DNA of 64,000 nt from Octopus sinensis. Taxonomy: Eukaryota. Position 1 is the stretch's first letter. Each line of letters starts with the position of its first letter. The notes under the pieces were generated by a model. That model ran no database searches. It worked only from the letters and a program-made list of their open reading frames with translations, and had not been told where the DNA came from. The stretch spans positions 318,343 to 382,342 of the forward strand of contig NW_021832374.1 in assembly GCF_006345805.1 (NCBI RefSeq). The letters run 5' to 3'. Both the position numbers and the translations under genes were made by a program. This document shows, piece after piece, positions 878 to 46,049 of this stretch.

Positions 878-2545
878 GAAGAAGAAGAATATGGTTTATT
901 TAATACAATAGGTCCAAAAGAAAAGTGGCCGAGGAATTAGAGCTTAGGGGGCGTGATAACGAGAGCCACGAAGGTCTCAACTTCGGTTTTGCCCCAGGAG
1001 ACTGTCTTATCTCCCTCAGCGAATTCGAGTTTTTGCCAGGATCGCGTCAATCGTGTCAACACTCCGCTCATGCAGGTCTTCCAGCGGACTGCTGAGCTCC
1101 AGGCCGAATGCCAGTTTGATGGCAAATCGTCTGGTTTTTTCGAGTTTGGCGATTAGAAGGTCCCTTTCATCAGTTTGGTACCAGCCCTCCGAGCCATAGA
1201 TTATTAGTGGCTGAACACAAGTCTGGTAGATGTGTAGAAACGTTTCTGCGCTTAGACAAAAACGCCTTAGTCCTTTTAGGATTTTCGCTCCTTGTTTCCG
1301 CTTTGCATGCACATGGGGTTTGTATGACCCGGTGGGGTCTATAGTTACTCCCAGGTAACGTAGGTTCTTCGATATAATCAGGTTCCCATAATCCTCGAAA
1401 GTCGGTTTTTTTGTCACGACCCATTGAAATCCAACAAATGGTACTTTTGTCCAGAGCGAGATTCAAGCCTTTACCATTGCACCAGATTTCAAGTTCCTCC
1501 AAGTACGGTTCTAGTCTGCTCCAGGACAACCTTCTTCTGTGTCGGGGTCCCCACATCGAGACATCCGTAACCAAGATATCGTCCGCGTAGATAATTAGTC
1601 TGCTCGTAGGAAAATGTGGTTTCGGGACGTCGGCCAGAAATATATTAAAGAGCAAGGGGCTGAGAACCGATCCCTGAGGAACACCTCTCCTCAGATTCAC
1701 GGCCTTCGATAGCAAATTTCCACAACGAATGAACGATTTTCTCTCGCACAAGAAGTCCTTAAGCCATCTGACAGTTTTTCGCCCAGCACCCAACTCCGCT
1801 ACTTTATCTAACAACCCCAAGTGCCAGACACTGTCAAAGGCCTTGCAGACGTCCAGGCAGACCGCCGTTAGGCAGGCTTTATGGAGTTTGGCCCGAGACA
1901 GTTCTTCCTCAAGAAGCGAGAAACAGTGACCGGTTGATCGACCAGGTCTAAAACCCCACTGTTCCTCCGCGAGTATATTATTTTGTTCCACGTAAGCCGA
2001 TAAATGATTGAAAATAATTCTTTCCATTATCCTCGACGTTGTGCAGATAAGGCTAATTGGCCTATAACTTCCTGCCTGCGTCTTTGGTTTTCCAGGTTTT
2101 GGGATCATTCGGACGATTGTTCGTTTCCAGCTAGATGGGACGTGACCATTGTCCCAAATGGCATTGAATAGTTTCACCAGAATACGAAGCAAGCATCCGG
2201 GTGCCTTCTTGAACACCTCCATAGGGATAAAGTCAAATCCAGGAGCGTTGTTCTTGCAACCTCTGATTGCTTCGAACGTCTCTTCCGTGGTTATTTCCCT
2301 GCACAAGAGTCCATCCAAAACAAGTTTTGAGCGGGAATTTCGGGTCGACTCCTCAAATATTTTCAGAGGCAGGATAGACGAAGGGTCCACCTCCTGAATC
2401 CCTGCTAGCTGCTGGCGGAAGACCTCCGGGACTTCCTCAGTAGGAACAAAGCCTCCATCCACCGATTTAAGAATGATTTCTTCTCCTTTCGCCTCCGTCC
2501 CGTTCATTATTTTGTATAGTTTCCAGAATATTCGAAAGTTGATCA
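878..2545 (-). mobile_element. 5'-truncated non-LTR retrotransposon (jockey/I-group-like RT), frameshifted
   Basis: RT motifs APGFD, YRPISL, QWGFRPGRST, DVCKAFDSV, GVPQGSVLSPLLF, YADD; YLGV in a shifted frame (1016..1417); 3' end has AATAAA and a (TTC)n tail near 878-900. Confidence 0.9.
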
Positions 2546-2991
2546 AAATTCAAAGAGGATCCTTAATTAAAAAGATAAACTCAAAAGTCTTAAAAAAACT
2601 CTTTTTAGCAGCGTGAACCACCCCCGCATATTGACGTGTCGTCGTAATCAAAGTGGCTTAATGATGGGAATAACTCTTTCTGATCAGAAGCGTTATTCTA
2701 AGATGCAGATCCTTTCCTGATATTTGGTACTTGTCGTTGTAATTTGCTATTTCTCTTCTGGTGCCAGGAGTTTGTCAAAATAACCCTACATGCTTAGTTA
2801 TTGGAAAACTTAAATTTTTTATTTCTAAACTATCTTCTTGGTGGTTATCTCGCCATAATCTCAATTACGTGTTTTATCGAATATATTTGTTATGTATTCT
2901 CAATTACAGCCAAAGTTTTTTGGTGGTTAATTTAAAAACACGTTAAAGAAACATACGTTTGTAAGTTATAACCAAAACGTTTCATTAGTAA

Positions 2992-4179
<1,188 letters not shown>

Positions 4180-5149
4180 TGATAAGAAATAGGTTAGATA
4201 TGTAGTTCAAATATTTTATTAGTTTTTAGCCAAACAAAAAATAAACCATTAAATACCAATAAAATAAATAATTTTTTAGGGTTTTAGGAAATCTGCAATT
4301 TCTTCGTTCTTTCGATCCCATTGATCACGACAAATCTTGTACAGCACAGGAAACAATAAGAGTTATTAGTTTGGTCCATTTCCTTTTATCTAAGTCTTTC
4401 CCTAGACTCCGAAGGTCTCTATCTATTATCTATATTGTTAGTAAAATAACATATTACGGGTTTCATTAGAAGAATATGAATTTCGCGTTATTCTCGTGTC
4501 CAATTCGACCGTTATTTTATTTGAAAATTCTACACGAAAATTACGACGAATAAGCTGGATAAGTATTGGAAAAAATATCATTGATATATGTAAGCAAAAT
4601 ATATTACTCTGGAACGCAAATTATTTTCTATTATTAATTTTTTGACCAGATGACCAAAACAACCATCATCCAGAAAACCCGATGGCAATGGTGAATCCAA
4701 AAATCCAGGTATGATGCTATCGTGGTTATCTAAATTTATAATAAAAAAGACATATTACGGATTTCATAAAGATTGTCTGTTTTCATAAGGAGTGTTTTTG
4801 TTAGTCTTGTGTATTACGCGAGTACGACTCCATTCGGGTACGAGATGACCACGACCGTTGTTTTACTTTGAAAATTCTACACAAAAATTACGAATTAATG
4901 ACCCACTAATTCTAAAATTATTTTCAGCATAACACGTTATAGCGTTATTAAATATAGTTTATTTTCAGCTATAGTTAAACATTAATAATGACTCAATATT
5001 GAAAAATCTAGTTGGTTTTAAGAAGAGATTAAAGAAATATTCAAAAGTTTCTAAAAGTATTGCCTTGCCTGCTTTCAAAAACAGCGAAATTAACAAATAT
5101 TGATTCCGACAATTCAAACAATGATTTTTATTAAACATTAATCTTTTAG

Positions 5150-5340
5150 TCCTCTACTAATGCCTATTACCATGGTATCTGCTTTTTCTTTGTTTCCGGT
5201 CCTATCTGTTTTGAATTTCCCAATCACACGCTTCTAACATGTTTTTAATCATTAATCTCTTCAAAGATAATAATAACTCCTCCAACACCAAAATTCAAAA
5301 GCATCAATTTTTCATCTATTCGCCTTTTCAGTATTCATAT
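5150..5340 (-). mobile_element. Short degenerate RTE-clade 3' remnant
   Basis: Minus strand encodes KIDAFEFWCWR, resembling the RTE/BovB C-terminal RIDAFELWCWRR motif; stops present. Confidence 0.45.
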
Positions 5341-5779
5341 TTAAGCGCCGTATATAAAAATTCTAAAATTATTTTCAACATAACACGTTGTAACGTTATT
5401 AAATATAGTTTATTTTCCGCCATTGTTAAACATTAATAATGACTCAATACTGAAAGTTTAGTTGGTTTTAAGAAAAGAGATTAAAGAAATATTCGAAAGT
5501 TTCTGAAAGTATTGCCTTGCCAGTCTGATTCGGTTTAAGCAAATATCTCTGCTTTTCCATATATTATTTTTCTTTATAATTTCTTCAGAATTTTATACAA
5601 AAGTTAAAAAACTAAAGATCCTTAAGAATCGACGAGTAAGTAGAAATTTAAAAAATCTCTTATTGTGCTACAAAAGGCACAATTGTAAAATACACAATCA
5701 AAAATGAATGGCCATTTCTTTCAAAAATAAATTTTGAATTTACTACCGGACAAGTATAAACAATATTTACTTATAGATT

Positions 5780-6135
5780 TAAGAATACTGGCATTCCTAT
5801 ATGAACTAACAAAGCAAGTCTCTCGTTTGAAACGCCACTTTTCGGCAACCATGCTCCCCAAGACTTGCAGCAACCCGGCTTCGGCAGTGCTAAAGCCGAA
5901 GAGTCAACGAGGACAAAATACATATTTATTCCGGACTCTTTTGAGCTATGCCTCCTTGCTTTCACAAACTCAGGAATCTTAGAAAAGTCGGCAATTCAAC
6001 TACTCACTGACATTAGTAGGAGAATCTCCTCGAGAACAAACGACCGGGAGGGGACTAGCTGGTTTTTTCAGCGAACCTCGGTGACCGTGCTTAGTGGACC
6101 CTCTCGACTGCTATTTCAGCCACTTACGTAGGTAG
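5780..6135 (+). mobile_element. CRE-like non-LTR element, C-terminal restriction-like endonuclease fragment
   Basis: AKAEESTRTKY...AFTNSGIL...ISRRISSRTNDREGTSWFFQRTSV matches the AExxKxxKY...ETxG...R...WLFQRLS pattern also seen at 60016-60455. Confidence 0.7.
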
Positions 6136-6203
6136 CATCTAACTTTGTTGAAAGAAAAAACATATTTCCTGAACTAAATAGTAAATAATTATATATTTAA
6201 AAT

Positions 6204-6598
6204 TTATTTTTTCAAAAATAGTTTTTTATCTTTAATAAATTCGGAGATCATTTTCAGGACTTGATTATCGAATTGAGGAGGTGGTTTGCTCCTCCCTGAA
6301 TTCAAAAAAAGAAATATAAACCCACAACCCAACAATAAAGTTCTATTTCACTGTCAGTAGAATTTAATAAATCACTGAATTGATTTAATTGTTCATCTGT
6401 CATTTTATTAATATATTCGAGGGCAAACTTGCTGAAATATATTTGGGAATAATACCTCATTATTAAATCATTTTCCAGCGTTCCCCTCTTTCCTGCCTGA
6501 TAAACAAGTCTACTTCTTATCCTGTTCTTTATTTGGCACAAGCTACGTATATTATGTGAATTAAAAAATAAAGTTCGTAACGTGCCACCACCAAACAT
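6204..6598 (-). CDS. SDHAF2: Succinate dehydrogenase assembly factor 2 (Sdh5 family), mitochondrial
   Basis: RSRLVYQAGKRGTLENDLI...LNQFSDLLN...ELYCWVV|GRSKPPPQFDNQVLKMI; two short introns. Confidence 0.9.
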
Positions 6599-6898
6599 AA
6601 AATAAATAAAAATAAATAAATTATTTTATTATAAATAATGAAAAAGATATTATTTTATTTTTATATAAAAATATTGCTCAAATTTTTTAAATTTTTAGAC
6701 GGAAATGTTTAGTTTTGAATTGACTGATAAAAATTATCATTCAGAATATTTGTCAGTTTTTACAGTGAATTGTTAGAATGTTTGAAACTAATATAATAAT
6801 AAATATTTTTATTATATTAATTACTAACAATTTAGAATATAAATAAAAATTATATAGGTTACTGTCCCATTTAGTGTTGTTCTGGTGATTACAGATAT

Positions 6899-7793
6899 AT
6901 GGATTATCCTGCAGATACTGACAACTATTACGATTTTACTGAAAAGTCAGTCCGACAAGGTAACTTAATTATTATTCTAATATAGGATTTATAAGAAAAG
7001 TGTATTCCATCTTGACAATCCAGTTAATATATACTATTGGAGTGATATCCTTCTGCATATTCCAGTATAATTTATATCATAAATATGCCAGAGAGAGTGT
7101 AAGGGATTACCTCAATCAAAATCCATGGTTTATGTATACTAATCTGTATTTATAAACCTTTTATTTATAGGGCTTTGATGGTTGTTTTTATGCTTGCCAT
7201 TTCCTGCTTTAGAAATAATGTGAGAAAAGTGCCGAGAAATTACATAATGCTATCCTTCTTTGTATTCGGTTTTGTCTATTTTAGACATTTTTCTTTGCAA
7301 ACTACCTCGGAGCTGTCAGTAGGTTTGTTTTTTAGTATTTGTATCTCTCTGAGTTGTATTTTTGATATTTTCAGTTTTTACTCAATTATGGCCGTTCTGC
7401 TGTCTATTGGGATCACAGCTGTTGTGGTTGTTGGATTGACTATTTTCAGTTTCCAGACCAAAGTAGACCAGTTGGCTTATTGTAGATTGATTTTACGAAA
7501 ACATCAGGCGCTGCCTTCTGTCTTTTGATAGTTCTGATTATATTTGGACTTATTTTTCCAATTTCTGGTGTTCCAATTCTTCACAAAGTGTATTCCTGTA
7601 TTGCGGCTTTGCTTTTTTCGTGGGTTGGTGATTTGGTGCTTTGTGTTAGTATATTGTAATTGACACACAAATGGTTATGGATGGACAGAAAAAGTACACC
7701 ATTTCCCCCGAGGACTACGTTTATGCTGCACTCAATTTATATGTCGACATTGTCAACTTATTCCTTATCGTCCTTAGTTTTTTTAATGAATAA
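6899..7793 (+). CDS. Lifeguard / TMBIM (Bax inhibitor-1 superfamily) membrane protein; multi-exon
   Basis: FTEKSVRQ|GFIRKVYSILTIQL; RKVPRNY; TIFSFQTK|DFT; IDTQMVM..KYTISPEDYVYAALNLYVDIVNLFL; first intron 6960-6985 (26 nt). Confidence 0.9.
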
Positions 7794-8049
7794 TTACTAA
7801 TCTTTCGTTTATTTGTAACACTTTGTGTTTTGGTGTAGAGAAACTGTTTAGTAAATTATGAACTAATCAACTTTGATGTGGAAAGAGACTATTCGAGTAA
7901 ACGCGCTAAGCAGCAAAGTAGTATCAACAAAGAGTCAATCTGTCCTTTTTTTCATTTTATTGTATTCTATTCCACGCTCGGAAATCTGGTCGTCTTTGCG
8001 TTTAATGTAATGAGTATTTTTATCTTTTATGTGTGAAACTCACAAAGCG

Positions 8050-9600
8050 TGATTTGGCGTCAATATTTGCATAAAAGTGTCCCAAATGTATTCTACACCC
8101 TTTCAGAGGTCCCTAAGATGACAGGACTTGTCCAACTGGTTCTGTTGATCCCCTCTGGATATCAACTTATTAAACTGTCTCGTCTAATCAGTTTTGTCTC
8201 ACTTACGCTCGGAACCCCCTCTCGCATTGGGGAAATCCACTCCCTCTCTCGACATTGATCAAAGAGAGCATTAAAAATATCTTTTTGTACCCAATAACAA
8301 TCTTTCCAGAAGTTGTCCACAAACGTCTTCAAAAGTGCAAAAATAACCTAAAAAGAACATTCCACACGGTCTGGAAAACACCCTGAATGAACTTGTCAGT
8401 ATCAAACTAGCCGAAGGTGACGTCCGTGCTGCGATTCGCACAGTTTCAAACGACGACACAGTGGTAAATCAGAGTGCTGATGTCCTTGTCCACTTGAGAT
8501 CAAAACATCCAGACCCTCCTCCTGATGTACGACCTCGCCCATCTGTGCCTTCCACCCTCAACCCCTCAGAAGAAGAAATCAGAATTTCAATCAAATTATT
8601 CGGGAAGAGCAGCTTACTCGATGGCTTAGGCTCGGGCCATATCAAGAAACTCACTTCTCCCTCAACTGGAAAGGCAGGTAATGCTCTGATCTCTGCTATA
8701 CCCGCTCTAATCGGTAAGATCCCACACTTTGCGAGGAACATGCTCTACTTGCATTCCGGGAAAAGGACGGCGGAATCCGTCCCATAGCAGTTGGAAACTA
8801 CTTCCGCCGCCCGAATTTCCTCCTTTCCAACTGGGGATTGCCAACGGTTGCAAAACCGCAGTTCACGCTGCCAGAAGCCTTTTCTCTTGCCTTTTCTCTT
8901 CTAACGGAGCGCTCAGCTCCCTCCACGCAGTTGTGAAGCTCGATTTACGCAACGCCTTCAACCGTATAAGGAGAGATCAGATCCTCGAGGCTTGCCTTAA
9001 AAGAGCTCCGGATATCGCCCAGTTGGTTTTCCTTTCCTACAGCTAAGAAAGCACGCTTATCTTTGGGAACCAAGTCGTCCTCTCATAGACAGGAGTTCAG
9101 CACGGTGACCCAGTCGGGCCGCTCCTCTTCGCCCTTGCAATCGATGATGCCGTACACTCCCTAAACTCTCTTTTCAACTTATGGTACTTGTATGATGCAT
9201 TGAGTCCATTTTCAAGACCTCTCACATCTCATTCCTGTCCTTGGACACTTCGGGCTATAATTAAATGAAGGAAAATGAAAACTTTTGAATATCAATTATC
9301 CTCAGACAAATTTTCTCGATTTGAGAAAATCAATAACCGATTTTATTTCCAGAGTTCAGACTGCCAACATGTCCGAAGTCACAATTCTCGGCTGCCCTCT
9401 CAGCCCATCTGGACTAAGGGCCCACCTGGCTAAGAAGGAACTGGATTCCGTCATCTCACAAACAAGCTTCTGACATTGGACTCGTACATCGCCTTCTTCC
9501 TCATGAAAAGCAGAATGCACATGCCGAAACTGCTATACATGCTCCGCTGCCTGACATGTTATCTTCTATGAAAACCTCCCTGAAATCGTCCAAGGAAGCA
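8050..9600 (+). mobile_element. Degenerate CRE-clade non-LTR retrotransposon (RT region)
   Basis: Across frames: KLAEGDVRAAIR, LRSKHP, KDGGIRPIAVG, QLG..GCKTAVHAAR, KLDLRNAFN, GVQHGDPVGPLLFALAI, WYLYD, ILGCPL; many stops and frameshifts. Confidence 0.85.
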
Positions 9601-12262: not shown

Positions 12263-12377
12263 AGAAATTGTGATTTTTGAATAATTTTATTATATAGAAA
12301 ATATTAATATATCCAAAATCTGATCAAGTGACTCTCGTCCGGCGTGAATCACGTCTGGACTGTGACAGTTGTCGTAA

Positions 12378-13565
<1,188 letters not shown>

Positions 13566-14385
13566 TGATAAGAAATAGGTTAGATATGTAGTTCAAATAT
13601 TTTATTAGTTTTTAGCCAAACAAAAAATAAACCATTAAATACCAATAAAATAAATAATTTTTAGGGTTTTAGGAAATCTGCAATTTCTTCGTTCTTTCGA
13701 TCCCATTGATCACGACAAATCTTGTACAGCACAGGAAACAATAAGAGTTATTAGTTTGGTCCATTTCCTTTTATCTAAGTCTTTCCCTAGACTCCGAAGG
13801 TCTCTATCTATTATCTATATTGTTAGTAAAATAACATATTACGGGTTTCATTAGAAGAATATGAATTTCGCGTTATTCTCGTGTCCAATGCGACCGTTAT
13901 TTTATTTGAAAATTCTACACGAAAATTACGACGAATAAGCTGGATAAGTATTGGAAAAAATATCATTGATATATGTAAGCAAAATATATGACTCTAGAAC
14001 GCCAAATTATTTTCTATTATCAATTTTTTGACCAGATGACGAAAACAGCCATCATCCAGAAAACCCGATGGCAATGGTGAATCCAAAAATCCAGGTTTTA
14101 TGCCATCGTGGTCATCTAAATTTACAATAAAAAAGGCATATTACGGATTTCCTAAAGATTGTCTGTTTTCATAAGAAGTGTTTTTGTTAGTCTTGTGTAT
14201 GACACGAGTACGACTTCATTCGGGTACGAGATGACCACGCCCGTTGTTTTAATTTGAAAATTCTACACAAAAATTACGATTTGAAAGTTTCTAAAAGTAT
14301 TGCCTTGCCTGCTTTCAAAAACAGCGAAATTAACAAATATTGATTCCGACAATTCAAACCTTGATTTTTATTAAACATTAATCTT

Positions 14386-16691: not shown

Positions 16692-16789
16692 CAACTTTGT
16701 TTAATTTTTTAGCCTTTGGAAAAAATGAGATAAAAACAGGTATGTTTAGAAAAGAAAATTTTATTAAAAATCTACAAGTGTCCCAAGAC

Positions 16790-17240
16790 TAATTTGACCC
16801 ACTGTAGATGTGTTGTTGTTGAGTGCTGTGGTCGGAAACCATGTTGTGACTTTGAGAGAGTGAGGAAAGGGTAAATTGATTTCAGGACAAATTTTTCTAG
16901 GATTTTTGATATGACAGAGATAAGTGAGATTGGCCTGAACGAGGCGGGGTCGCAGGGGTCCTTATTGGGCTTCAAAATTGGAATTTTAATAGATTTTTTC
17001 CAGACCATAGGTATTAGACCTGAGTTTAGCGATGTTTTGAATATATCCGATAGTGCAATCAACCCATTTTGGCCAAGATTTTTCAGATGGTATATGCAAA
17101 GACCGTCGGGTCCACAAACGTGAGAATTCTTAGCGTTTTTGATGAGTTGGCTTATTTCAGAAATCGATATAGTGATTTCTGGAGAGGGGATGTCCTTGTG
17201 ACTGTAGTAACTTTTATAATGTGAATACAGACACATTTTC
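16790..17240 (-). mobile_element. RT N-terminal fragment of Ingi/Vingi-like LINE
   Basis: GPDGL..HLKNLG, WKKS..IPILKPNKD...SFRPISLISVISKILE, QHGFRPQHST; close to the 18810..20500 RT. Confidence 0.85.
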
Positions 17241-20200
17241 AAGTTTAAGATATGTTTAACAATCTAATTTTATCATTACAGTTCCATCTCAAATAATACG
17301 ATTTTTAAGTTCCCAAAAGTCAACCGTACGCGATCTATTATGTATTTTAAATTACTTACTGTATAGGCTTTTTTCAAAACAGAAAATGTCTAAATTTACA
17401 AATAGGTCTCAGTCAATAATGTATAATGTATAATTTTTTTATACTTAGATATTCTCATATTAGGCCCGAAAATAGAGGGCTTGAGAAAAGTATGGAAATA
17501 GACACAATTTGAAAGAATACTGCAACATTAGAAAAGAAGAAGCATATCGTCCGTTAGTTTACTTATAGTATCCTTAATCAATCAATATGATATGCAAAGA
17601 GCAATCCATCCAATCAAATATTCGATGTCGCTAATTTACTATATTTCCTTGTTTTACTTTTTATCTTTAATAAGTTTCAATTGCTACATACAGTAGTCAC
17701 AATTAAATATACGATCACTAAAGATACATGTGTAGTACTTGACTCTATAAAATGATTGTTAATTCCACAAATGGTGCTACTTTAGTTTTCTTGTATTTAA
17801 ATACCTGAATTTAATAACCTGTAAAAAAGAGTTTAGTATTGAGTAACTTTACAGTAACATGCAAATAAATACAATTTTTGTGCTAATTAATATCATTCAA
17901 CTAAACCAATATTTCTCAACTATTATTGTAAACAAATGTATTTTCATAGAAAATCTAGATGAGAGCAAAATTCCGAATTTTTAATCATAAAAATATGTAT
18001 CAACATTCGGACATGTAATACTAAAAACATAGGAAGCATTGATCAATTACTTATTATAAAAAACAAATAATTTGGTGAGCAATTGAAATCGCACTTAATT
18101 AAATATTTGGATGCTACTAATTAATTAACACGGTTATTGATAATGCTCCGCACTTTCGCAATTAATTAGTACCATATATTAGATACAGGAGTCACAGTAC
18201 GTACAAAACGTTAACGTGGATTACTTTGATAAATTAACTAACTGGTCCAAGGTTCCCAGCAGTTCTTCCAAAGCAAATACATCCTCACTTTGACGGATTC
18301 TGATATACCAGCTGCTCTACAGGAAAGATTGGAGGAAGGCACGACTTTGATTGTGATAGAATATTCGTCACTTCAGTTTCTCAGTTCGAATGCTACTACT
18401 GGGATATACAGAAACAATAAATTGTCCAATCATTCATACGTACGATTGATGTTTGACTAAACACTCGACGAAAGAAGACCCTATAATATAAATTTGTATT
18501 AAAGTTTATTAATTTTAATATAAACTAATTTTACTAACCAATAATTATTTCATTACGGTCAACATAGATATAATAGATATACTATCGCGCTCTATTTGTT
18601 GGTTTATTAATTATTTATTTTGTTATAGTGAATGGAGAGTAATATACTGTGGACTACTCACTCTTTGGTGGACTGTATAATAAAAAGAGACCCAGAAAAA
18701 GAACCGAAATATGAACCGAAATATACTCCTTTCATCAATCTTATTATTTATTTATTTATTTATTACCCCCGGCCCCTTCAATTGAAGGAAGCCGGTGGCT
18801 AACAGAACGTTAGGGCAATGTCGGACGCTCCCAAAGATCCCCGATCGTGATCCGGTGTTCCGAGGAAGTAGAAGGCGGGCCTGGACAGGAGAAAAGGTCG
18901 TTGAGGGAATAGGAAGGGGTTATTTCACCAAGACCGATTTTTATGCGATAATCGTGTAGGCCAGTATGGTGGCCACAGCGGAGACGAGCCAAGTTCACTC
19001 GGGCTTCTCTTGAGAGGGAGGATTCGATCTTATTAATTGGCGGCGGAAGGCGTCCCAGAAGCTTGTTTATTCCAAGACATCTGATTGCCCTCGTAGCCAC
19101 CAGGTCGTGAATCCCCTTCTGGTTAATGTCCGGAGGGGATCGTATAAGCTTGCGGACTTTGTCCGCGAGGGTCGGAACTATTCTCCTGTTGTTAGTGGAG
19201 TGCCAGAGGAAGTAGCCAGGGTGATTTAGGGTTCGGCATTTGTCAAGAAATTGCAGCCCGAGCATTTCAAAATGGTCACTGATTGGGAGGATTTTCGATT
19301 CCCAATGTAGGTGGTCGGTAGGTGTCGTTTTTAGACAGCCGGTAATAATTCGTAATGCTGAGTTTTGAGTTCTCTGAAGTTTTTCAAGGTTTGTATTAGA
19401 TAAGCAGGAACCCCAAGCAGGGATGGCGTAGTTCATAGTTGTTCTAATAAACTGCTTGTATACAGTTGTTAGACTTTCCTTATCCTGCCCAAATGAAGTC
19501 CCCGCAATAGCTCGGAGCACATTGAGTTTTTTCTGGGATTTTCCACAGATATATGAAACATGTTTCGAGAAGGACAAACAGCAATCAAATATCAGACCCA
19601 AGATTTTGGGGGATTTTTCAACTGGGAGTGGAGTGTTGTCTAGGAATAGTTTAGGCTCTAAGTTGAACTGACGGCGGTCAGTTGTGAATAGCGTAACAGA
19701 TGATTTGGAAGGAGAAGGTTGAAGAAGATTGCATTTCAGCCAGGACGAAAGAGTGTTCATGTGTTCCTGCAGAAATCCAGAAGCGGTGATTATGTTTTGG
19801 TGGCGGGAGGCAAAAATTAAGTCATCAGCGTAGGAGAGGAGTAGAGTATTATTGTTCGTCGGGATATTTGACAGATGTAAGTTAAATAAGGCAGGTGAAA
19901 GGACCGAGCCTTGGGGAACTCCGTTAGGCAAGTATTTGTAGCGTGAGTAAGAAGACATGATTGTGGTGCGACCAAGACGCCCAGAGAGAAAAGAGAGTAG
20001 CCATGACTTTATTTGGTGGGGGAATTCCGTATCGGTTATTTTCCTACACAGAACGTGTCTTGACGTTCTGTCAAATGCCTTTTCAATGTCGATGGATGCA
20101 ATAATTGTTCTTTGAGGTGGCTTATGATTGTTAAACCCATCCGCAATGAATTGTGTCAGTTTTGAAAGATGGGTGGAAGTGGAATGCAAAGAACGAAAGC

Positions 20201-21840
20201 CATGTTGAGATTCAGCAAATGGGAGGAAAGGTTTTATGATGCTCAATACAACTCGCTCTGTTATTTTTGAAACCACTGAGATCAAAGAGATAGGTCGAAA
20301 AGAGGAGGGGTCAGAGGTATCACGATTTGGCTTTGGGATAGGGATGATGGTAGATTTCTTCCAAAGCATAGGAACCAGACCATGGTTGATCGAGTATTCG
20401 ATTAAATTGGTCAGAGCCAGAAAGCCATTAGGACCCAGATTTTTTAGGTGGTGGATGGCAAGGCCATCAGGACCTCTGGCGTTAGAATTCCGCGAGTTAA
20501 CAACAAGTTGCCTGGTAAATGATTCTGGGATGTTAATATAGTCAGTAGAATTGTCATTTGACTTATAATGTGATTTTCTTACGAAACGGAGATCCTTTGG
20601 GGTAGGAAGGTGACTGATTTTTGCATAATGGCGAATTAAGATGTTGGCTTGATCCTGGAAAGATAGGACAGACTTTTTGGTCGAGATACCGGTGGCATGT
20701 GAGAGGGGACATGTTTGCCTCGTGTGAATTTTCTTGAGGGTTCTCCAGAAAGCACGGGATCCAGTATTTGGGGTTATTGAAGTGATAAAATCATTCCATT
20801 CGTCAGTTTTATGTTTCTTGATTAATTCGTCAATTTGTTTGTTGATTTCTGCTAGGGATTCTCCATTTCCATTGATAGAAGTCGTCGATTTGATCCTCCT
20901 TCGTTTTTTGAATAGTTCAATGATAGGTGGGGGGAAGTGGAGGCCGTGATTTCGGATGAAGCCGCGGGGAATAAATTTTTTGTCCGCAGAAAGAAGTGTA
21001 CTAGTAAAGAAAGCAACGGCAGCGTCAAATGATTGAATGGAGGAGCAAGAAAAATTACTGAATATACGTTCAGTTTCACTCCTGAACGAGTCCCATTTCC
21101 ACGTTTGTAGTTAATGTAGGTCTTCGTAATTCTCTTCTTTACAGGGTGATGGTTTATTTTGATTAGAATAGGATTGTGGTCCGTTGGTAGGTCGTACAGA
21201 ACTGTCCATTTGGCGTCGAGGGCGATGTTTGGGGAACATAAGGTAATGTCAGGAGAAGTGTTTGAATCTCCAGGTCGCATTGCACAGCGGGTGTGTAGAA
21301 GAGGGTCGTTTAGAGTGACCAATTCTTCCGCATCCGTTGTGATTTGCTGGCCACGTTTGTCAGTTTTGTTTGTGGATAACCAGAGAGGATGGTGGGCGTT
21401 GAAGTCGCCACATAGAATACAGTTTTCAATTGAAAAAAGAGGCAGTAAGTTCGGTGTATAATTGGGAGCACATGACGAAATCGGGGGGATATATGTGTTA
21501 ACAACAGAGTAACATATCTTGTTAATGTTAATTTGAATAGATGAAATTTCGGTAAATCGATCATTAGTTAAGAGAGATTCAATGTTGGCAGTTGAGTCTG
21601 CAAAGGGAATGGCCTCGTGAATGAGAGTAATGAGACCACCGCCAGGCTTTCCAGACTGGCGGTCACGACGAATGGTGGAATATCCCTTAAAACGGGGGGT
21701 TGGGATTTTGGAGTAAGTTTGGTCTCTTGAATAAGAGCTATATCAATAGAGTTCGTGTGTAGAAAGTAGCGTAGGTCATTGCATTTCTTGGAAATCCCGT
21801 TGATGTTCAATTGAAGGATGGTTAGTGTTCTAATAGGCTC

Positions 21841-21900
21841 AGGTCCAGGGTTTTGTTCCACATCTCCACACCGAATCAACAATAGAGTCAGGGAACGTAA
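21841..21900 (-). other. 2A-like ribosomal StopGo peptide
   Basis: LRSLTLLLIRCGDVEQNPG|P matches the D(V/I)ExNPGP consensus, immediately before the APE domain. Confidence 0.9.
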
Positions 21901-21968
21901 GCTTGGCGCTCGTCCCGTAGCCACTACCAACCAAACCGTTGACAGGTTGGTTGGCAAGGGGGAAAAAT

Positions 21969-22039
21969 TGGTTCTGTTTGTTGCTGATGAGAAATCAGCA
22001 TCCAATCGTCTCCACGAGAAGGTGAACCACATGACGATC
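21969..22039 (-). ncRNA. HDV-like self-cleaving ribozyme at the LINE 5' end
   Basis: P1 GAUCGUC/GACGAUU (G1-U wobble); J1/2 AUG; P2 UGGUUC/GAACCA; P3 (A)CC/GG(A); L3 UUCUCGU; P1.1 GG; P4 UGCUGAU/AUCAGCA; J4/2 A-C-AAA-CA. G1 is exactly the element boundary next to the TSD. Confidence 0.85.
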
Positions 22040-22937
22040 TTCATCAATCTTATTAAAAAAATGTCTTCAAAACACCAGAAATACCTCGACTCTGTAACCT
22101 CCCAATTGGAGTTGATAAATTCCCCTTTCGATACCACTCTCGTTTCTGTACTCGAACAAATGTTTCGAACAAACTCAGTAAATAGTTGGGGAGGACTGGT
22201 CATGCTATTTTTGTTAGCACATGATTTGGCGGAAAAGAATCCCGAATATAGTGGACTAATAAAAGATGTATTCATCGAGCACATCAATCGGGTGTATTCT
22301 GGGTGGGTGTCCAGGCAGGGAGGATGGGTTTATATTCTGCCATCATTTATAGCACAAACTATTCGTGGCTAAATATTTGGCAGTGGAGAATACGTTTAGT
22401 TTGGTTGGGTTTCTGTCATCTAAAATAACCAGTTTGTTTGTCAATTAATTATTATTGTTTTATTTATAAGATCAAAGTAATTGACATTTAATGTGGCCAG
22501 TTCGATCGGTTAAATCGATTTGGTTTTATAAGATAGTCATGTCCTATCGATTCTAAGGACGATTTGGATATTGGCATTTGTAAATATTAATTAATTTTAT
22601 GTTTCGTGGGGATGTTGCTCTTTGTCTATTATGGTCTATAAATACTTAATTGCTGTTTAATTTTAATCAAGTCGTTTAATAATTGTTGTAATAAATACTT
22701 CCAACTGTTTATTTATAGATATTTTAATAAGGTTTTAAAAAGAGATATGGCTCGAAATGAAAACAGATTTTTGTGCCTAGTAGAAATCTGTCTTTTTCAA
22801 ATAAAGATTAATATTATATAAATAGTGTTTATTGGAACTATATCTACTATAAAATTTTTATAATTAAAATAATTTTTGATTCTTATTAAAAATTTAATAA
22901 ATTCATAAATTAGTACCCTTATGTGTGTAATTTTTTA

Positions 22938-24999
22938 ATGACTGAAACGATCAACTTAACGGAGAATAATGAACCTAATAAAATTCAAAAAGAAATAATA
23001 ATTCATTTTGATCGAAATAAATACTCAAGCACTGATTTCCCAACACTCGAATTCTATTACGACGATCTCCTGGCTTCTTCTGACCAACTCAATTTAACCA
23101 GCAAAATACCAAAAAAAGACTCAAAGAACTAAGGGTATCGAAAAGAATTCAAAAAGAATTTGTAAACAATCAAATCCATTTTAGAGTAAACTAATTGAAG
23201 ACAGAGGAGTCAACGAACGGGAAGCTTTAATGCTCATGGAAAAATTTCCCCACCTCAACTACGGTTATGACACATCCGACCCGTTCGTGGACGACTCTGA
23301 AATTGTATTTATCCCTAAAAACGTGTTGTAGTATGATGAATGCATTCCTTTCGATATGCGAACCAAAATTGAGGGGTTTTACTTGAATGACGGACCTGTG
23401 GAATATTATTTCGAAGATTCTGAACACTCCGACTCCGTGTTTACTCCCAAATCCAAAAGAAAGTGTAAAAACGAGGACAAACATCCAGAAACTGAAGCAA
23501 AAGACAAAAAAATAAACACAAAAACAAACAGTCTTCGAACTCATTTAAATCAACAGTTTCCGGATTTATAGCCAATTATGTGGAGAAGTGGTATTATATC
23601 ATCGAATCAGCCTCCAATTTGGTATTTGGGGATTCTTTCGACCCGATTGATAGTCTGCTGTCACTAATCCCTTCAAAAATGTCCCAAACTATCGACAAGC
23701 TCATAACCCCGTTGTTTAAGACAAATGGTGGTGATCTTCTTGACGATTTGGTGGCCCACAGTCCGCCAACCCGCCCTTCATTGACACATTTGGCCTCGGA
23801 ACTGCCTGCTGGGTATTATCAGCCCGTTATTGCTGCTTTATATCGTTTTTTGGAGGTTTTGATGTTTTTGCAGTCTCTAGTCCATGGAATTGAAAGGTGG
23901 TCGTCTGGACTGCCCTCGCAAACCGGATTTCGAAGACACAAAAACATTATTTGTGTTACTAAATAAGTAATATAAATTAGGTTATTCGTCAACTATCGAC
24001 GATTTGGGCTGTCTGAGCAACAGTGGGAGACAATACAAAATATTATTTCAACTGGACTTAACTTGTCTCCAAAAACTGACAAAACATCGATTTTGAAGAT
24101 ATTGTGAAATGTTACTGCGGGGGGATTGACAAAGGGTTGATAGCTTGTTAGTAGTATTGGCACTACTGTCTAGATTTGCAGGACATTGAGAGGAGGGGCA
24201 CAGGAGGAATCCACTCAAGTTTTTGTAAAAAAGCACAAATTCATATTTTCGTCTTGTCAAATGTACATATTTGTATATTTGTTTGTAGAAAGTTGATAAG
24301 AGCGGTATTTATTAATATATTTATTGGCCATCAATGTGGAGACCATGTCGATCGAGACATTTCTCCACCAAACAAACACGTTTTTGAATCATCTGGTCTC
24401 CGAATTTGGCGGAGTGGTTTGTGGAATAACGAGGAATGGACTGATGAAACAAGCAGACATTGATTTCAGTCCATTGAGACGTATTGTGAAGAAGAACGCA
24501 CAGTAGTTCTCCATTTATATTTTAGATTGTCAAAAAGTGCCACAGAAGTGGGACAAGGCACTGATAAAACGAATTTCGGAGCTATCGAACCCACAAATAT
24601 GTCACTTCCCGATAATATGACTGAAAAAGCAAACATTTGTGACAAGTCTGTTAATTTGGGGACAGTCTTCCTGAGATTTATACATCTCCGATTAAAACAC
24701 CCGCCAACTGTGACCCCGAGAATATGATTTTGCCGAGCAGTTCTAATTCACTCATATCCCAACCGATTGCTATAAATTCGGGGAAAAGTAAGGCACAGAC
24801 GTGTGTCCCCGATTCTCCCCCTGTGAAGAGGTCTTCCCTTCCAAATTCAGTTGGGGATACATCATATGGGGGGTTGTTTTCTCCTGTCCAAAATACGGGC
24901 TTGTTGATGAGGCCTTCACAGAATGTGCATATTGGTGGGGGACTGCAGTCGAGTCCGTCCGACATCCATTTAATGGGGAGAATTATTGGCAGTCGCTGA
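22938..24999 (+). CDS. UBN1: Ubinuclein/yemanuclein-like HIRA-complex subunit; multi-exon, 3' end approximate
   Basis: LEFYYDDLL; HUN/HRD domain GYDTSDPFVDDSEI|YDECIPFDMRTKIEGFYLNDGPVEY. Symbol denotes the UBN1/2 family. Confidence 0.8.
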
Positions 25000-25597
25000 A
25001 CAGAGCGTTTTTGAATCCTCGGAATAATTTGTTTTTTACTCCAAGTTCCAAGTATTCCTCCTATCTTTGGAATCCATCACGACCAAAACAGAGACCTTCC
25101 AGCTATCAACATAATCGACCTCCATACTGATTCACTATTTGTACATTTATGTATTATGTGTCCTATAATTTTTGGAAATTTCTCAGTGACAGATTGTTTG
25201 AGCAGGGTTTTTCAGTAGTTAAGAAATCAAATGTTAAGGCAGAGTTTGGATGCGATGTAAATATGAAATTATTTTTATAAAAAATACTAGATCTGGTTTC
25301 CATAAAAATTGTATATTTCCAGCTCTGTTTATTTTAATCTGTTCCCCGATTCGAATTCTTTTTTGGTTTACTATAGACTTCATTATTTAAAGTTGTTGAA
25401 AAATTTTAGCCTAATGAACTTACACTACATTTTGAAAGCGTAAATCTTGATTCATCATCATTGAGTTTGCCTTAATTGGCATTTACAAATCAAAGAATGT
25501 TAAGTAAAACGATTTTATTTTTATATTTTGAAAACACGACTTTTTTAAACTAAAATCGAGGTTAATCAACAAATTTTATTCGTTGCTTATCATTGCA

Positions 25598-31750: not shown

Positions 31751-32112
31751 TAGGTGGAAATTTGATTTTGTGATTACAGTTTGAAGTTTTTACTTAAAAA
31801 TTTGATTTTGTGATTGCAGTTTAAAATTTGTAATAGACAAATTGACTTGAAAATGGTATAGTATCGGGTTCATCATATTAGATAGTTTTCAAGTTACATT
31901 TTTGGCCAAAAGAGATGTCGTGCACGCGCAATACAAAATAATTTTCTAACGAGGTGACTGTCTTCTCAGTCAGTATCTCGCTACAATCTAAATTTCGTGT
32001 TCTGTGGAGGACATCTTATATTTAATCCCAATTAAAGCAAAATTTTTTGGGTGGTAAACATTGTTTATAAACAATTCAAACAAAAGTAGTAACCAAAACG
32101 TTTCATTAGTAA

Positions 32113-33303
<1,191 letters not shown>

Positions 33304-33596
33304 TGATAAGAAATAGGTTAGATATGTAGTTCAAAAATTTTATTAGTTTTTTAAAATAGTCAAACAAAAAATAAACCATTAAATACCAATAAAATAAATA
33401 ATTTTTCAGGGTTTTAGGAAATCTGCAATTTCTTCGTTCTTTCGATCCCATTGATCACGACAAATCTTGTACAGCACAGGAAACAATAAGAGTTATTAGT
33501 TTGGTCCATTTCCTTTTATTTAAGTCTTTCCCTACACTCCGAAGGAAATCTGGAATTTTTTATTTTTTCAATTAAACTTTAAAAAACGATGAATAA

Positions 33597-41780: not shown

Positions 41781-42010
41781 AAGTTCTCTCTATATAGCTC
41801 TTCCATACTTGAATGGTTTGGAAATAAAAAATTGCAAATTATCTAAGATTGATTTTTTGTTTTAAATTTTTATCTGTAAATTAATGCTGATGTCCCATAG
41901 ACAAGAACATTCGAAAAAATATACAGAAATGACTTCTACTCACCATAAATTAAATTATTATTTAAAGTTTAATTTTGATGAAAAATAGTTTCCATAGTTT
42001 TTATTTATAA

Positions 42011-45000
42011 ATGGAACAAACGTCGAGCTCAACCGTAAAAATAATCGTGACAATAAACAAGTGCGAAGGAATTGTATTTCTAATTTATTAATATATTTTA
42101 AGATAAGTACAAAATCTTCAAATTTTAATTTACTTTTAAAAAGTGAATTTTGCGGTAAAAATTTTATCGAGTCAACAAAAATTCCCTGTTCAGAAGAAAC
42201 TTCTTCCTTTGATTATTCAATAGTTCTTCCAGTAACCATAAATGACATTACAACTGCCAATGAACTGGCGAATAATCCAATAGTCGGTGAAAATAATTTT
42301 TTTAAGTTTTTAGTCCAGGCCTATGAGATTTTGTCTAAAGAAAAAAAACAAAAAGAAGAAAAAATGAATCTTTTAGGATATTTTGAAATTGATCTTTTAC
42401 AAATCATTGAGAATCAGCCTTCAGTCTCGAATTCAGTCTACCTTATCCCAAATGAGTTAATTTATACGGAAGAATTGATGAAATCTGCAAATAACGTGAT
42501 TTTATTTTATTTACTACAAATAGTTTATATTTCACTATGAAATTAAATGTCCGGAAATTATTTTTTCAAAAGATCTTTTAAGTTCTTGGACAAGATTGTC
42601 ATTCACAGTTGGAACACTTTTTGCAATTCCAGAAAATATGAATAATCCAAATAATATTTTTATTGCTTCAATATTGTTACCCTTGGAGAATGAAGTAAAT
42701 TTAATTTTTATTTTTTAGAAAGAAGAAATAGCATGTTATTTTAACGGACAAATCAGACAAAGCAACGAAACTTCTAATTGTGGAAAAAGATATCCAAAAT
42801 TATCGACGTTTTCAAAACCTTTAAACCGAAGAATAGCCTTTGATCAAAATCTAAAAAATTGTCAGAATTGCCTCGCAGAAATGAAAGATATTCCTTTTGG
42901 AAAAGAACGACGACTTCTGGAGACAAGAAACCCTCGTATAGAATGGAACATTGAAATTAATTTTTACATCACCACAGAAGGAATTTCTGAGTTTTTTTTA
43001 TTTCTAAATTGAAAAGGCTTAAAAGAAATATCACAAAAAACAGGTTTTTACCAATCGAAATCTGCGCTTACAATCCCAATCCAGGTATCAAAGGAAAAAA
43101 GGCATTTTCTGAAGTGATTACTTTCAGTTTGATGACGATTCTCAGGTTTTGTTTCACGGATTATCTTTCGTCAATTTCTGGCCGCTGTTATACCCAGGGG
43201 AGACCGATTTTGAAGGTGCCTTTTTAGTGAAAAACTTTGACAAGACTGAATTGTTAGCCAAGGTCAGTTCCTCTTTCTTAATTATTAGGGAGGACGAAAG
43301 AAAATTTTTACTGACGACTTCATAACTACTTCATATGCTACTTTCATGTCTCCAAGTCCTTCAAAGACTAAAAGAGATGACAAAAAAGAAATGAAAAAAA
43401 TTCCTCCAAAGTTAATCATGACTCCATCTGAAAGAACTGAGCAAACCAGTTTCGAGGATGGGAAAAGCTTTTTGACAGTTACGTGCTCAATAAACAAGCC
43501 TATGGTCCCCAAAAGAACTCGAGATCAGTTGGGGGATAGGTATTCTGTAAATGTCTAATTTTAATAGTGTCTACAAGTATGTCGTCTCTAAAAGACCTAA
43601 GCCGTCACAGGAATCATTAGCTGATAAAGTTTATTTAAAAAATAAAGTTTTAGGCTGTTGAAAATTTTCAAAATGTCATTTCGTCCGTTTCTGATTCTAT
43701 TTTAAGCGAGTTGTGCAAAATGATGGATTGTGCCTCTGTCGATGAACTCACTGCAGAAAAATGGTTTCACAGTAAATTTAAATATCACAAAGGGAATCCA
43801 AATTAGTTATGGAAATGAATTCTTCCGATATTTATTACGAAATCAAAGAAAAAGTGAAATTTGCAATCATCAATATTGTAAGAGAAAAGTGTTTGCAAAA
43901 GTCAAAGTTTAAAAGTGAAAGCGAATTTAACGTTTATTTATATTTAATTAGAATTAGACTTTTTTGTCTGATTTGTATGTTTTCTTGATGGATCAAATAC
44001 ACATTTCTCTCAATAAAAAAATCTCCGCTGTCGACGTTGTCCCCGAACCTCAGCCGTCTTTGTCAATAGAACAACTTGAATTTTTTGCAGACGAAGCCTA
44101 CTCGATAAATAAATTTCAACTCTCAGCAGATTACATAAAACAAATTCTTTCCAGAATACCAAATTCAGCCAAACATTGGCTCAAGTTGGCGGTTACTTCA
44201 CTGAGAGTAAACGACATGGAAAGTTCCCTCTACTATGCTGAACAATGCCTGTTCTACGACCCTTTGAACTACGACGGGTAGATTCTGTCATGAAAATGGT
44301 ATATAGGCAAATATTTACATCAATAATGACCGCTCTTCAAAATGACTATCAACGAGCTGAAGAGATTATGGAATATAACGTCGAATTGAATCAAGAAAAT
44401 AACACTTCGCTAATTATTATGGGTTACTGATTGAATTATAACAAAATAAAAGGACTTCTTTATGAACAAAATGGGAATGATCTCAAAGCAGAAATGGCAT
44501 TTCGATATGCCAATTTAAATACTGACAAATGTGAAGATTTTCCTCTTTCCACAGCCGACATTTTTCTAAAAAATGGTTTTTTAAATCAGATTTTAGAAAT
44601 GTCAGAAAGGAATTCTTCAGTCAAAAAATTTAGTTTTGAAAGCATGGTCTTAAATTCTCCAAAAATTAGCGAAAATGAAGTGAAAATTTCCTCAAATAGA
44701 GACTCTAACGATCCCGCCTTTTTGACAGCAGCAAATTGCTTATTTTCCCTCAATCTAATTCTTGTTAATTCCCCCCAAAATTAATTTTTCAGTATGCAGA
44801 GAAATCTCTCTCAAAAATATACACAGAAAAATCTCCAGAATACAACATTCTTAAAGCCCGAATTGCCTTATACAGAAAAGAATATGCTCAATTTGACAGC
44901 ATAATTGACACTTCATTGGTCGAATTGGTCGACGAACCTGCCATTTGGGCTCTGATTGGGCATAGTTTGTATGAAAGAGAAGATTACAGCAAGGCAGTAG

Positions 45001-45490
45001 ACGCCTATAATCGCTATATCGACATGTTGGGCGAGAAAAGTGAAATGCATGCAGTACTTCTACGTCTTTCGGAGATATACCTGAATAAAGAAAAGTACTC
45101 CGAAGCGAAATATGTATTCAAATTAGCCACACAAAATAATCCGACATATATGACGTGGCTTGGTTTGGGAATTTGTTGTTATCGGGTTTGAATTGAACAG
45201 GAGATAACTAATGAGTAGATTGGAGAGATCGAAGAAGCTGAAATGGCACTCTGTGAGGCAAATTGTTTGAACAGTCTCGATTTTAAAGCGTGGGCATATC
45301 TTTGTCTGATTTCTATCAAAACAAAAAGGCAAATGGAGGCGGAACAGTCATTTAAATATGCGATAAGAGTTGATTTTATTGTTATTGGTTTTTGTAGTTG
45401 GGACTTGAGGAATATCCGGAGTTGTATGGGGAAGTCACTGACTTACAATCGAGTAGTGGATTTGGAAATCCACAATTTAATTTTAGTTAA
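42011..45490 (+). CDS. CFAP70: Cilia- and flagella-associated protein 70 (TTC18), C2-like + TPR; multi-exon
   Basis: N-terminal LSKEKKQKEEK..LG..EIDLL; C-terminal TWLGLGICCYR|..EAEMALCEANCLN..WAYLCL..RQMEAEQSFKYA...GFGNPQF. Confidence 0.85.
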
Positions 45491-45558: not shown

Positions 45559-46049
45559 ATGTTTCTACCCGTGTTAAGTAACGCCTTTAAAAGTTTTGGC
45601 TTAAGAATAAGAAGTTCCTCGACTAAAACGAGCGAAATTGAGTAATAAAATAATTCTAAACATTCAGCTATTATTTCAAAATGTACGAAAAGAGACTCTC
45701 AGTGATACCCCCTGCTCCAAAACTGAAACACGAAACAGTCATCAAATACGGAATTGAGGACGGGAAAATGATATCCTGCAAACAAGTTGTCGACAAATTT
45801 TACAGACTCAACAGCGGGTTATGGATAAGGACTTTTGGGACTTGCAAAAATTATTTAAAGCCATATAGCGAACGTAAAAGAATGAGAGAACATATTTTTT
45901 GCACAAAAAAGCAATGCAAAACACTCGATAAGATGGTCAGTCCAGAATTCAAGCGAAGACGATATTATCCCGATGATATTTACGAAAATTACCACCATCG
46001 AAGTAATTTGAGTACAGCCCCCACTCGTCCACGCCCATTTTGGCCTTGA
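45559..46049 (+). CDS. MRPL35: Mitochondrial ribosomal protein L35
   Basis: GKMISCKQVVDKFYRLNSGLWIR...RMREHIFCTKKQCKTLDKMV...YYPDDIYENYHHR; a 26-nt intron joins a basic presequence-like exon. Confidence 0.9.

Follow-up and report, generated by a model that had tools for sequence, protein, structure and literature searches.

Pro-survival members of the Bcl-2 family have one coding intron, located after the GGW motif, whereas Bax, Bak and Bok have 4-6 exons (PMC8998228). In Bcl-2 homology region 1 (BH1), an arginine pairs with an aspartate of BH3 and is a hallmark of BH3 binding (PMC8310162, PMC6148235). Elements of the Ingi clade of retrotransposons carry a 2A-like motif (PMC3708506), and Vingi elements are without RNase H (PMC13708176). 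Dicyemids are ciliated and rich in long interspersed nuclear elements (LINEs; PMC6736024). Their introns are very short, with a median of 27 bp in Dicyema sp., compared with 57 bp in Intoshia linei (PMC6543705), and among 51 genomes introns of this size were reported only for myxobolids and Dicyema japonicum (PMC13644364). Here, we describe a Bcl-2-family gene and a LINE within it, found in a stretch of 64,000 nucleotides from the Octopus sinensis assembly GCF_006345805.1 (contig NW_021832374.1, positions 318,343 to 382,342, forward strand). This whole stretch is called the window, and its coordinates are used throughout.

A 3,293-bp element on the minus strand lies inside a coding exon of the gene, bracketed by the two copies of a 16-bp target-site duplication (TSD). 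We consider it probable that the gene is a divergent Bcl-2-family member of an animal with cilia and tiny introns (likely a dicyemid); that a young, likely full-length APE-type LINE sits antisense in its coding exon and makes this allele likely null; and that versions without the interruption, likely spliced, are still present in the population.

Insertion site and gene structure

The two TSD copies were 100% identical and in frame on both sides, each encoding F-I-N-L-I in the frame of the host gene, in agreement with an earlier note made from the sequence of the window. The TSD was the sole repeated 16-mer in 17000-24000, where 0 of 200 shuffles gave any, and had no further occurrence in the whole window. 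Read through by coordinates without the element, the gene encodes 160 amino acids and has a single 25-nt intron. An in-frame TGA directly precedes its ATG at 18632. The features of the gene and its insertion site are as follows.

18632..18730, plus strand: 5' coding part of 33 codons, with the putative helix 1/BH4 region and a loop; run contigs join it to 22040
18701..18724, plus strand: 12-bp tandem duplication in the loop (EPKY twice), seen in the sequence; a single unit in the four contigs for which an empty-site joint was listed
18731..18746, plus strand: left TSD copy, F-I-N-L-I; identical 16-mer
22040..22055, plus strand: right TSD copy; identical 16-mer
22040..22327, plus strand: Bcl-2 domain, region of helices 2-8, with the BH1 variant NSWGG (W at 22187-22189) and BH2 ending in GGW; PF00452, 41.6 bits
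22328..22352, plus strand: 25-nt phase-0 GT..AG intron after GGW; from the read-through, with a 25-letter gap in X3 record 16 that presumably lies here
22353..22448, plus strand: last exon, 31 codons and stop, weakly hydrophobic tail; from the read-through

Once the element was discounted, the gene had a single coding intron and not the exon structure of Bax, Bak and Bok. The earlier note had described a rejoined open reading frame (ORF) of about 160 amino acids; its length, BH1, BH2 and the intron after GGW all held, and its BH4-like N-terminus found no confirmation in Pfam, the PDB or the named Atlas families. The chimeric frame that the note had seen in the ORF track was recovered in the ORF list at 21815..22372.

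A possible intron of 27-31 nt with GT..AG borders was seen by eye at 18598-18628 (plus strand), ending 3 nt before the start codon. If real, the first exon of the gene would be untranslated, like that of pro-survival genes in mammals.

Empty sites in public sequencing runs

Four of seven public sequencing runs (X1 to X4, at most three samples) were compared using all contigs; X5 and X6 (small shares) and X7 were left out. For the element-flank junctions, results refer to the 28 of 304 pieces listed, and the left junction falls into a skipped repeat stretch; contigs also drop rare variants.

The empty-site joint, from 18712 to 22040, was listed in one contig of X1, two of X2 and one of X3. The runs thereby answer most of the question raised in the earlier note. 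All four contigs had one 12-bp repeat unit fewer, which shortens the predicted protein to 156 amino acids. In X4, letters of exon 1 stood directly before 22040, as a loose end with no listed joint. Record 16 of X3 spanned 329 bases, of which 304 were letters and 25 were gaps. The gap equals the intron in length and presumably lies at its position, and the record was likely derived from mRNA. Because empty sites were found in all four runs (three with a listed joint, one with a loose end), together with a likely spliced contig, the gene is not lost. Most probably, the insertion created a null allele recently and is carried by a minority; of the two options in the earlier note, a disrupted or a polymorphic allele, the second is favored.

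Read depth in X1 allowed a closer view of the alleles. Record 3 (785 nt, depth 33.6) had no difference from the window over 22040-22450 (411 nt) and 374 further letters upstream. Its depth and that of a contig of a second, diverged type (B, depth 35.8) add up to 69.4, the depth at 18661, 18682, 22075 and 22095. Because the sum holds on both sides of the insertion, we infer that record 3 is the empty allele with the window's own flanks; its joint row presumably falls in the skipped repeat. The filled allele is rare or absent in X1.

The B type was present in X1, X2 and X4. It had only five listed differing sites in ~280 nt of its near-identical ends, whereas over 22128-22345 its identity fell below 90%. 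A comparison by hand of the 30 letters shown for X2 gave 10 that differed from the window, with the frame open and a changed amino acid in 5 of 10 codons. Types A (that of the window) and B are paralogs or very divergent alleles, because their depths in X1 are equal.

The variants also bear on the reading frame. Among the 40 of 171 variant rows shown, a best-supported subset that includes paralog-type differences, eight fell in the predicted exons, seven of them at third codon positions (P=0.003) and five synonymous (P=0.014). Both variants listed for exon 1 were synonymous, a pattern that marks this exon as coding.

As an alternative, the window could hold a fixed duplicate killed by the LINE, with the empty-site contigs coming from near-identical paralogs in a duplication-rich genome. 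Segmental duplications of 1.4-1.9 kb at 93-98% identity do occur in the window, the diverged B type exists, and the X1 depth of the neighboring ubinuclein region was ~5x that of the Bcl-2 contigs (160-182 vs 34-36). However, record 3 matches the window over its 411 nt and continues unbroken past 22040, and the two contigs take all the depth at 22075/22095. A filled copy of similar depth would not fit in; as contigs drop rare variants, this argues for a rare rather than an absent filled copy. A fixed duplicate is therefore improbable, and a segregating insertion is preferred.

The inserted element

The insert contained an APE domain, a reverse transcriptase domain, a 3' repeat tail and a TSD, and thus all the features of an APE-type non-long-terminal-repeat (non-LTR) retrotransposon. 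Its parts are listed below.

18747..22039, minus strand: APE-type non-LTR retrotransposon, 3,293 bp, likely full length, antisense to the host gene and similar to Ingi/Vingi in architecture; Pfam domains, tail and TSD
18747..18765, minus strand: (TAAA)n 3' tail of the element, seen in the sequence; abuts the left TSD copy
19593..20339, minus strand: reverse transcriptase domain; PF00078 (RVT_1), E 5.7e-33
21167..21508, minus strand: APE endonuclease domain, matched part; PF14529 (Exo_endo_phos_2), E 2.4e-14
21841..21867, minus strand: GDVEQNPGP, a 2A-like ribosome-skip motif that closely precedes the endonuclease, seen in the translation; motif as in PMC3708506
22031..22033, plus strand: ATG from the 5' end of the element, in frame with the Bcl-2 domain exon, putative start; seen in the sequence

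The element had no ORF1, and its first ATG was 8 nt from its 5' end. No RNase H match was found by Pfam in its last 256 amino acids at E<=1. The element is likely full length, because other copies in the runs also leave it at 22039. An X4 contig of 3,149 nt differed from it by 13 other letters and 4 gaps (~99.5% identity). In X1, depth was 1,700-9,000 within the element and 34-36 in the gene contigs, values that are approximate and do not give a copy number. The element is young and multi-copy. Compared with X1, X2 and X4, the window element had four 1-bp deletions, each in a short homopolymer. Because these four gaps are common to the three runs and each extends a short homopolymer, the frameshifts of the window element may be consensus errors.

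Rfam gave 0 matches in 18400-22700, and therefore no support for a ribozyme. A sigma-70 promoter scan stayed at chance level, with a model that is not relevant to a eukaryote. An older remnant of a related LINE was located at 16772-17263 (minus strand), with 55% amino-acid identity to the inserted element.

The insertion would have started with the element endonuclease nicking the junction of T-rich sequence and A-tract where F-I-N-L-I ends, followed by target-primed reverse transcription that used the (TAAA)n tail and left the 16-bp duplication behind. Translation of the filled allele from the usual start codon is predicted to run into the element tail and to end after 56 codons. It would reach neither BH1 nor BH2, and the allele would thus likely be null.

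An assembly artefact, with a repeat mis-joined into the gene, would be in line with the lack of a bridged junction on either side among the contigs listed, and the four homopolymer deletions suggest an error-prone long-read consensus. Nevertheless, the exact 16-bp duplication, the tail without damage and the 5' end at 22039 shared with other copies are hallmarks of genuine retrotransposition. A mis-join is unlikely to create all of them together, and we hold this explanation to be quite improbable. It is similarly improbable that the filled allele is not null, whether because cryptic splice sites allow removal of the element or because translation from the ATG at 22031 yields a protein that lacks helix 1/BH4. 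Two frame-keeping GT..AG pairs do span the element (18795-21920 and 18795-21998), and the ATG is in frame with the whole Pfam domain; however, introns modeled in the window were mostly 25-33 nt, against the ~3.2 kb needed here, no such splice joint was among those listed for the four runs, and there is no evidence of an antisense promoter. A null allele made by a genuine insertion is the reading kept below.

Family membership and predicted function

Translated positions 22040-22327 matched positions 4-100 of 100 of the PF00452 hidden Markov model (E 1.9e-10), as the earlier note had suggested checking, with 41.6 bits against a curated cut-off of 31.4. In a PDB sequence search, Bcl-2 chains filled the top of the list (best E 8.7e-4), the best matches being Bcl-2/Bcl-xL chimeras. 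BH1 (F-R...N-W-G) and BH2 (W...GGW) were found in order and aligned to Bcl-2 in the PDB alignment. By sequence, the protein is placed within the PF00452-type Bcl-2 family. The earlier note had called the gene an apoptosis regulator: the family part of that claim stands on the PF00452 match, and neither the apoptotic role nor the fold was confirmed.

No true relative of the Bcl-2 part was found at E<=0.001 among 1.84 billion representatives. The only match there, P0002 (E 3.4e-5), was rejected as a repetitive protein without a Bcl-2 match. Among candidates of 101-324 amino acids 0 of 12 scored, and at 52-168 amino acids there was no candidate. Pattern matches to the Bcl-2 part were confirmed neither in metagenome contigs (0 of 296) nor in viral contigs (0 of 13). 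The top Atlas match was a cluster with 12% PF00452 (score 0.88), which serves as a lead only. The protein adds a new and strongly divergent member to a family that is already known, with no close homologue in the collections searched.

A viral origin was set aside: there was no viral relative by sequence, the lancelet adintovirus Bcl2 appeared in the fold search only at E 0.89, and the conserved intron was present.

The helix 2 region reads FINLIKKMSS, without the Gly-Asp of the BH3 motif of Bax, Bak and Bok, in a putative register taken from the Pfam coordinates and the general consensus. The window also has an S-W-x-x-L-V-M-L pattern, which we take to resemble that of mouse Boo.

We lean slightly towards a pro-survival-like role, in which the intact protein (156-160 amino acids) would restrain cell death through hydrophobic groove contacts. 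It would be a membrane-associated helical bundle that binds its partners without the canonical Arg-Asp salt bridge. This role is favored because the gene has a single GGW intron instead of 4-6 exons and because helix 2 shows no Gly-Asp in this putative register.

Several observations weigh against parts of this picture. BH1 reads NSWGG, compared with NWGR in Bcl-2; as the earlier note had recognized, the Arg is absent, with a Gly in its column of the alignment and a one-residue insertion, so the canonical Arg of pro-survival members is lacking. In Bcl-xL, R139Q abolishes pro-survival function (PMC6148235). The 38-amino-acid piece of exon 1 had no Pfam match and no PDB match at E<=10 and no named Atlas family, in searches for which such short queries are weak, leaving BH4 unconfirmed. 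The C-terminal tail was only weakly hydrophobic (Kyte-Doolittle hydropathy, best 19-residue mean 1.35, last windows ~0.9). Single-sequence models of the 3' part were all-helical and poor, with predicted local distance difference test (pLDDT) scores of 58 and 57. The first model placed Bcl-xL at ranks 1-2 by Foldseek (E ~1) and rank 2 by VIA (Z 7.5, root mean square deviation 3.7, 68 aligned), which is not significant; the second did no better in the fold search, with no significant match. As to the alleles, neither X3 nor X4 has a recorded library type, the variant rows include the paralog-type differences mentioned above, and no contig among the pieces listed bridges an element-flank junction, so that the window is the sole source of the filled allele. 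The host taxon, finally, is deduced from introns and one gene, CFAP70, and not from a sequence match.

A bolder view, to which we give little weight, is that a parasite of roughly 30 cells carries a minimal Bcl-2 pair that has dropped both halves of the Arg-Asp BH3 handshake. Its near-identical ends would enclose a groove-forming core strongly diverged under diversifying selection by a partner or antagonist, and a LINE-made null or BH4-less allele of one member would segregate in nature. If true, nature would have provided a knockout in which one could ask if dicyemids still depend on Bcl-2 to control cell death.

Host lineage

A motile-cilium gene, CFAP70, was located at 41900-45480 (plus strand, E 8e-20). 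Minimal-intron models gave introns of 26, 25, 26 and 50 nt (the last mis-modeled) for a TMBIM gene, 33 and 29 nt for CFAP70, 27 nt for a ubinuclein-like gene and 25 nt for the Bcl-2-family gene. Seven of the eight introns in retained models were thus 25-33 nt long; the tally left out cathepsin (3 of 3 models failed) and four alternative end-frame models for CFAP70 and HUN. Introns near 27 nt combined with a motile-cilium gene are as expected for a dicyemid, a combination that is suggestive rather than diagnostic. A search for full-length relatives of CFAP70 yielded 0 of 134 candidates. Judged by introns and gene content, the host is very probably a dicyemid.

To our knowledge, myxozoans have no cilia. 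With a myxozoan host, this would be the first gene of the Bcl-2 family from animals for which loss of that family was reported (in Myxosporea and Malacosporea, according to the available part of PMC10192318). Such a host would fit the sub-30-nt introns through the myxobolids, the only other animals reported with them (PMC13644364), but it is the least credible alternative given the CFAP70 gene in the window and the cilia (PMC6736024) and 27-bp median intron (PMC6543705) of dicyemids. The lineage of the host, for us a dicyemid, matters because Bcl-2 was reported absent in Myxozoa (PMC10192318) and present in Dicyema sp. (PMC6343361). For Dicyema and Bcl-2, the literature found gave only presence/absence, in the available part of PMC6343361; the supplementary tables of PMC6736024 may list Bcl-2 genes.

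Neighboring genes

A TMBIM/Bax inhibitor-1 (lifeguard-like) gene was located at 6899-7790 (plus strand), with introns of 25-26 nt and a best piece matching PF01027 at E 1.1e-9. It is a second cell-death regulator, ~11 kb upstream of the Bcl-2-family gene. Downstream, a ubinuclein-like gene occupied 22950-25100 (plus strand, PF08729) and had a different upstream flank at 22690. This flank and the ~5x X1 depth suggest that it exists in several genomic copies. Record 14 of X2 (22982-23518) contained 24 gap letters, of which 23 fit a small GT..AG intron near 23162-23184; X2, guessed to be a DNA run, may be RNA instead.

A cathepsin L-like gene segment was present in three copies on the minus strand (2829-4896, 12374-14282 and 31957-33545; 93-98% identity). 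A weak match to mitochondrial ribosomal L35 followed CFAP70 at 45660-46049 (E 0.0015). Further remnants of reverse transcriptases, hAT and Tc1/pogo elements were scattered across the window.

Significance and comparison with known systems

An exonic LINE insertion is ordinary in itself, and the Bcl-2 domain has already been tabulated for Dicyema sp. (PMC6343361). The insertion does not remove the gene from the population, and the case is for the most part an unremarkable polymorphism, an insertion into a divergent gene. Still, an assembly with the filled allele would mis-annotate or miss the gene, and a single insertion can thereby mislead presence/absence surveys of apoptosis genes in reduced parasites. 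The gene encodes a minimal and strongly divergent Bcl-2 that lacks the BH1 Arg; in its lineage, the family had only been scored as present. The A/B pair, together with a possible natural null, would make the role of the protein testable, and the pair with its diverged core is the most promising lead.

PF00452 was scored as present in Dicyema sp. and in Intoshia linei (supplement of PMC6343361), in line with the window; what differs is that the available part of that paper reports presence/absence alone for the Bcl-2 domain. The element resembles the Ingi/Vingi group in its length of ~3.3 kb, its lack of ORF1 and its order of APE followed by reverse transcriptase. It shares the 2A-like motif before APE with Ingi/L1Tc (PMC3708506) and the lack of an RNase H match with Vingi (PMC13708176). 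In contrast to Vingi elements, for which no 2A was reported in the available part of PMC3708506, it combines a 2A motif with no detected RNase H.

Like Bcl-2 and Bcl-xL, the gene product contains the PF00452 domain over nearly the whole length of that domain, and a single coding intron after GGW separates off a tail exon. It differs from them in being very short (156-160 amino acids), in having Gly for Arg in BH1, and in a BH4 and a transmembrane tail that are weak or unconfirmed. With mouse Boo/Diva and Trichoplax Bcl-2L4 it shares an altered NWGR motif, for which a change in BH3 selectivity is predicted (PMC8998228). In those two proteins, the available part of the paper discusses a change of the Gly (PMC8998228), whereas BH1 of the protein described here keeps the Gly and loses the Arg.

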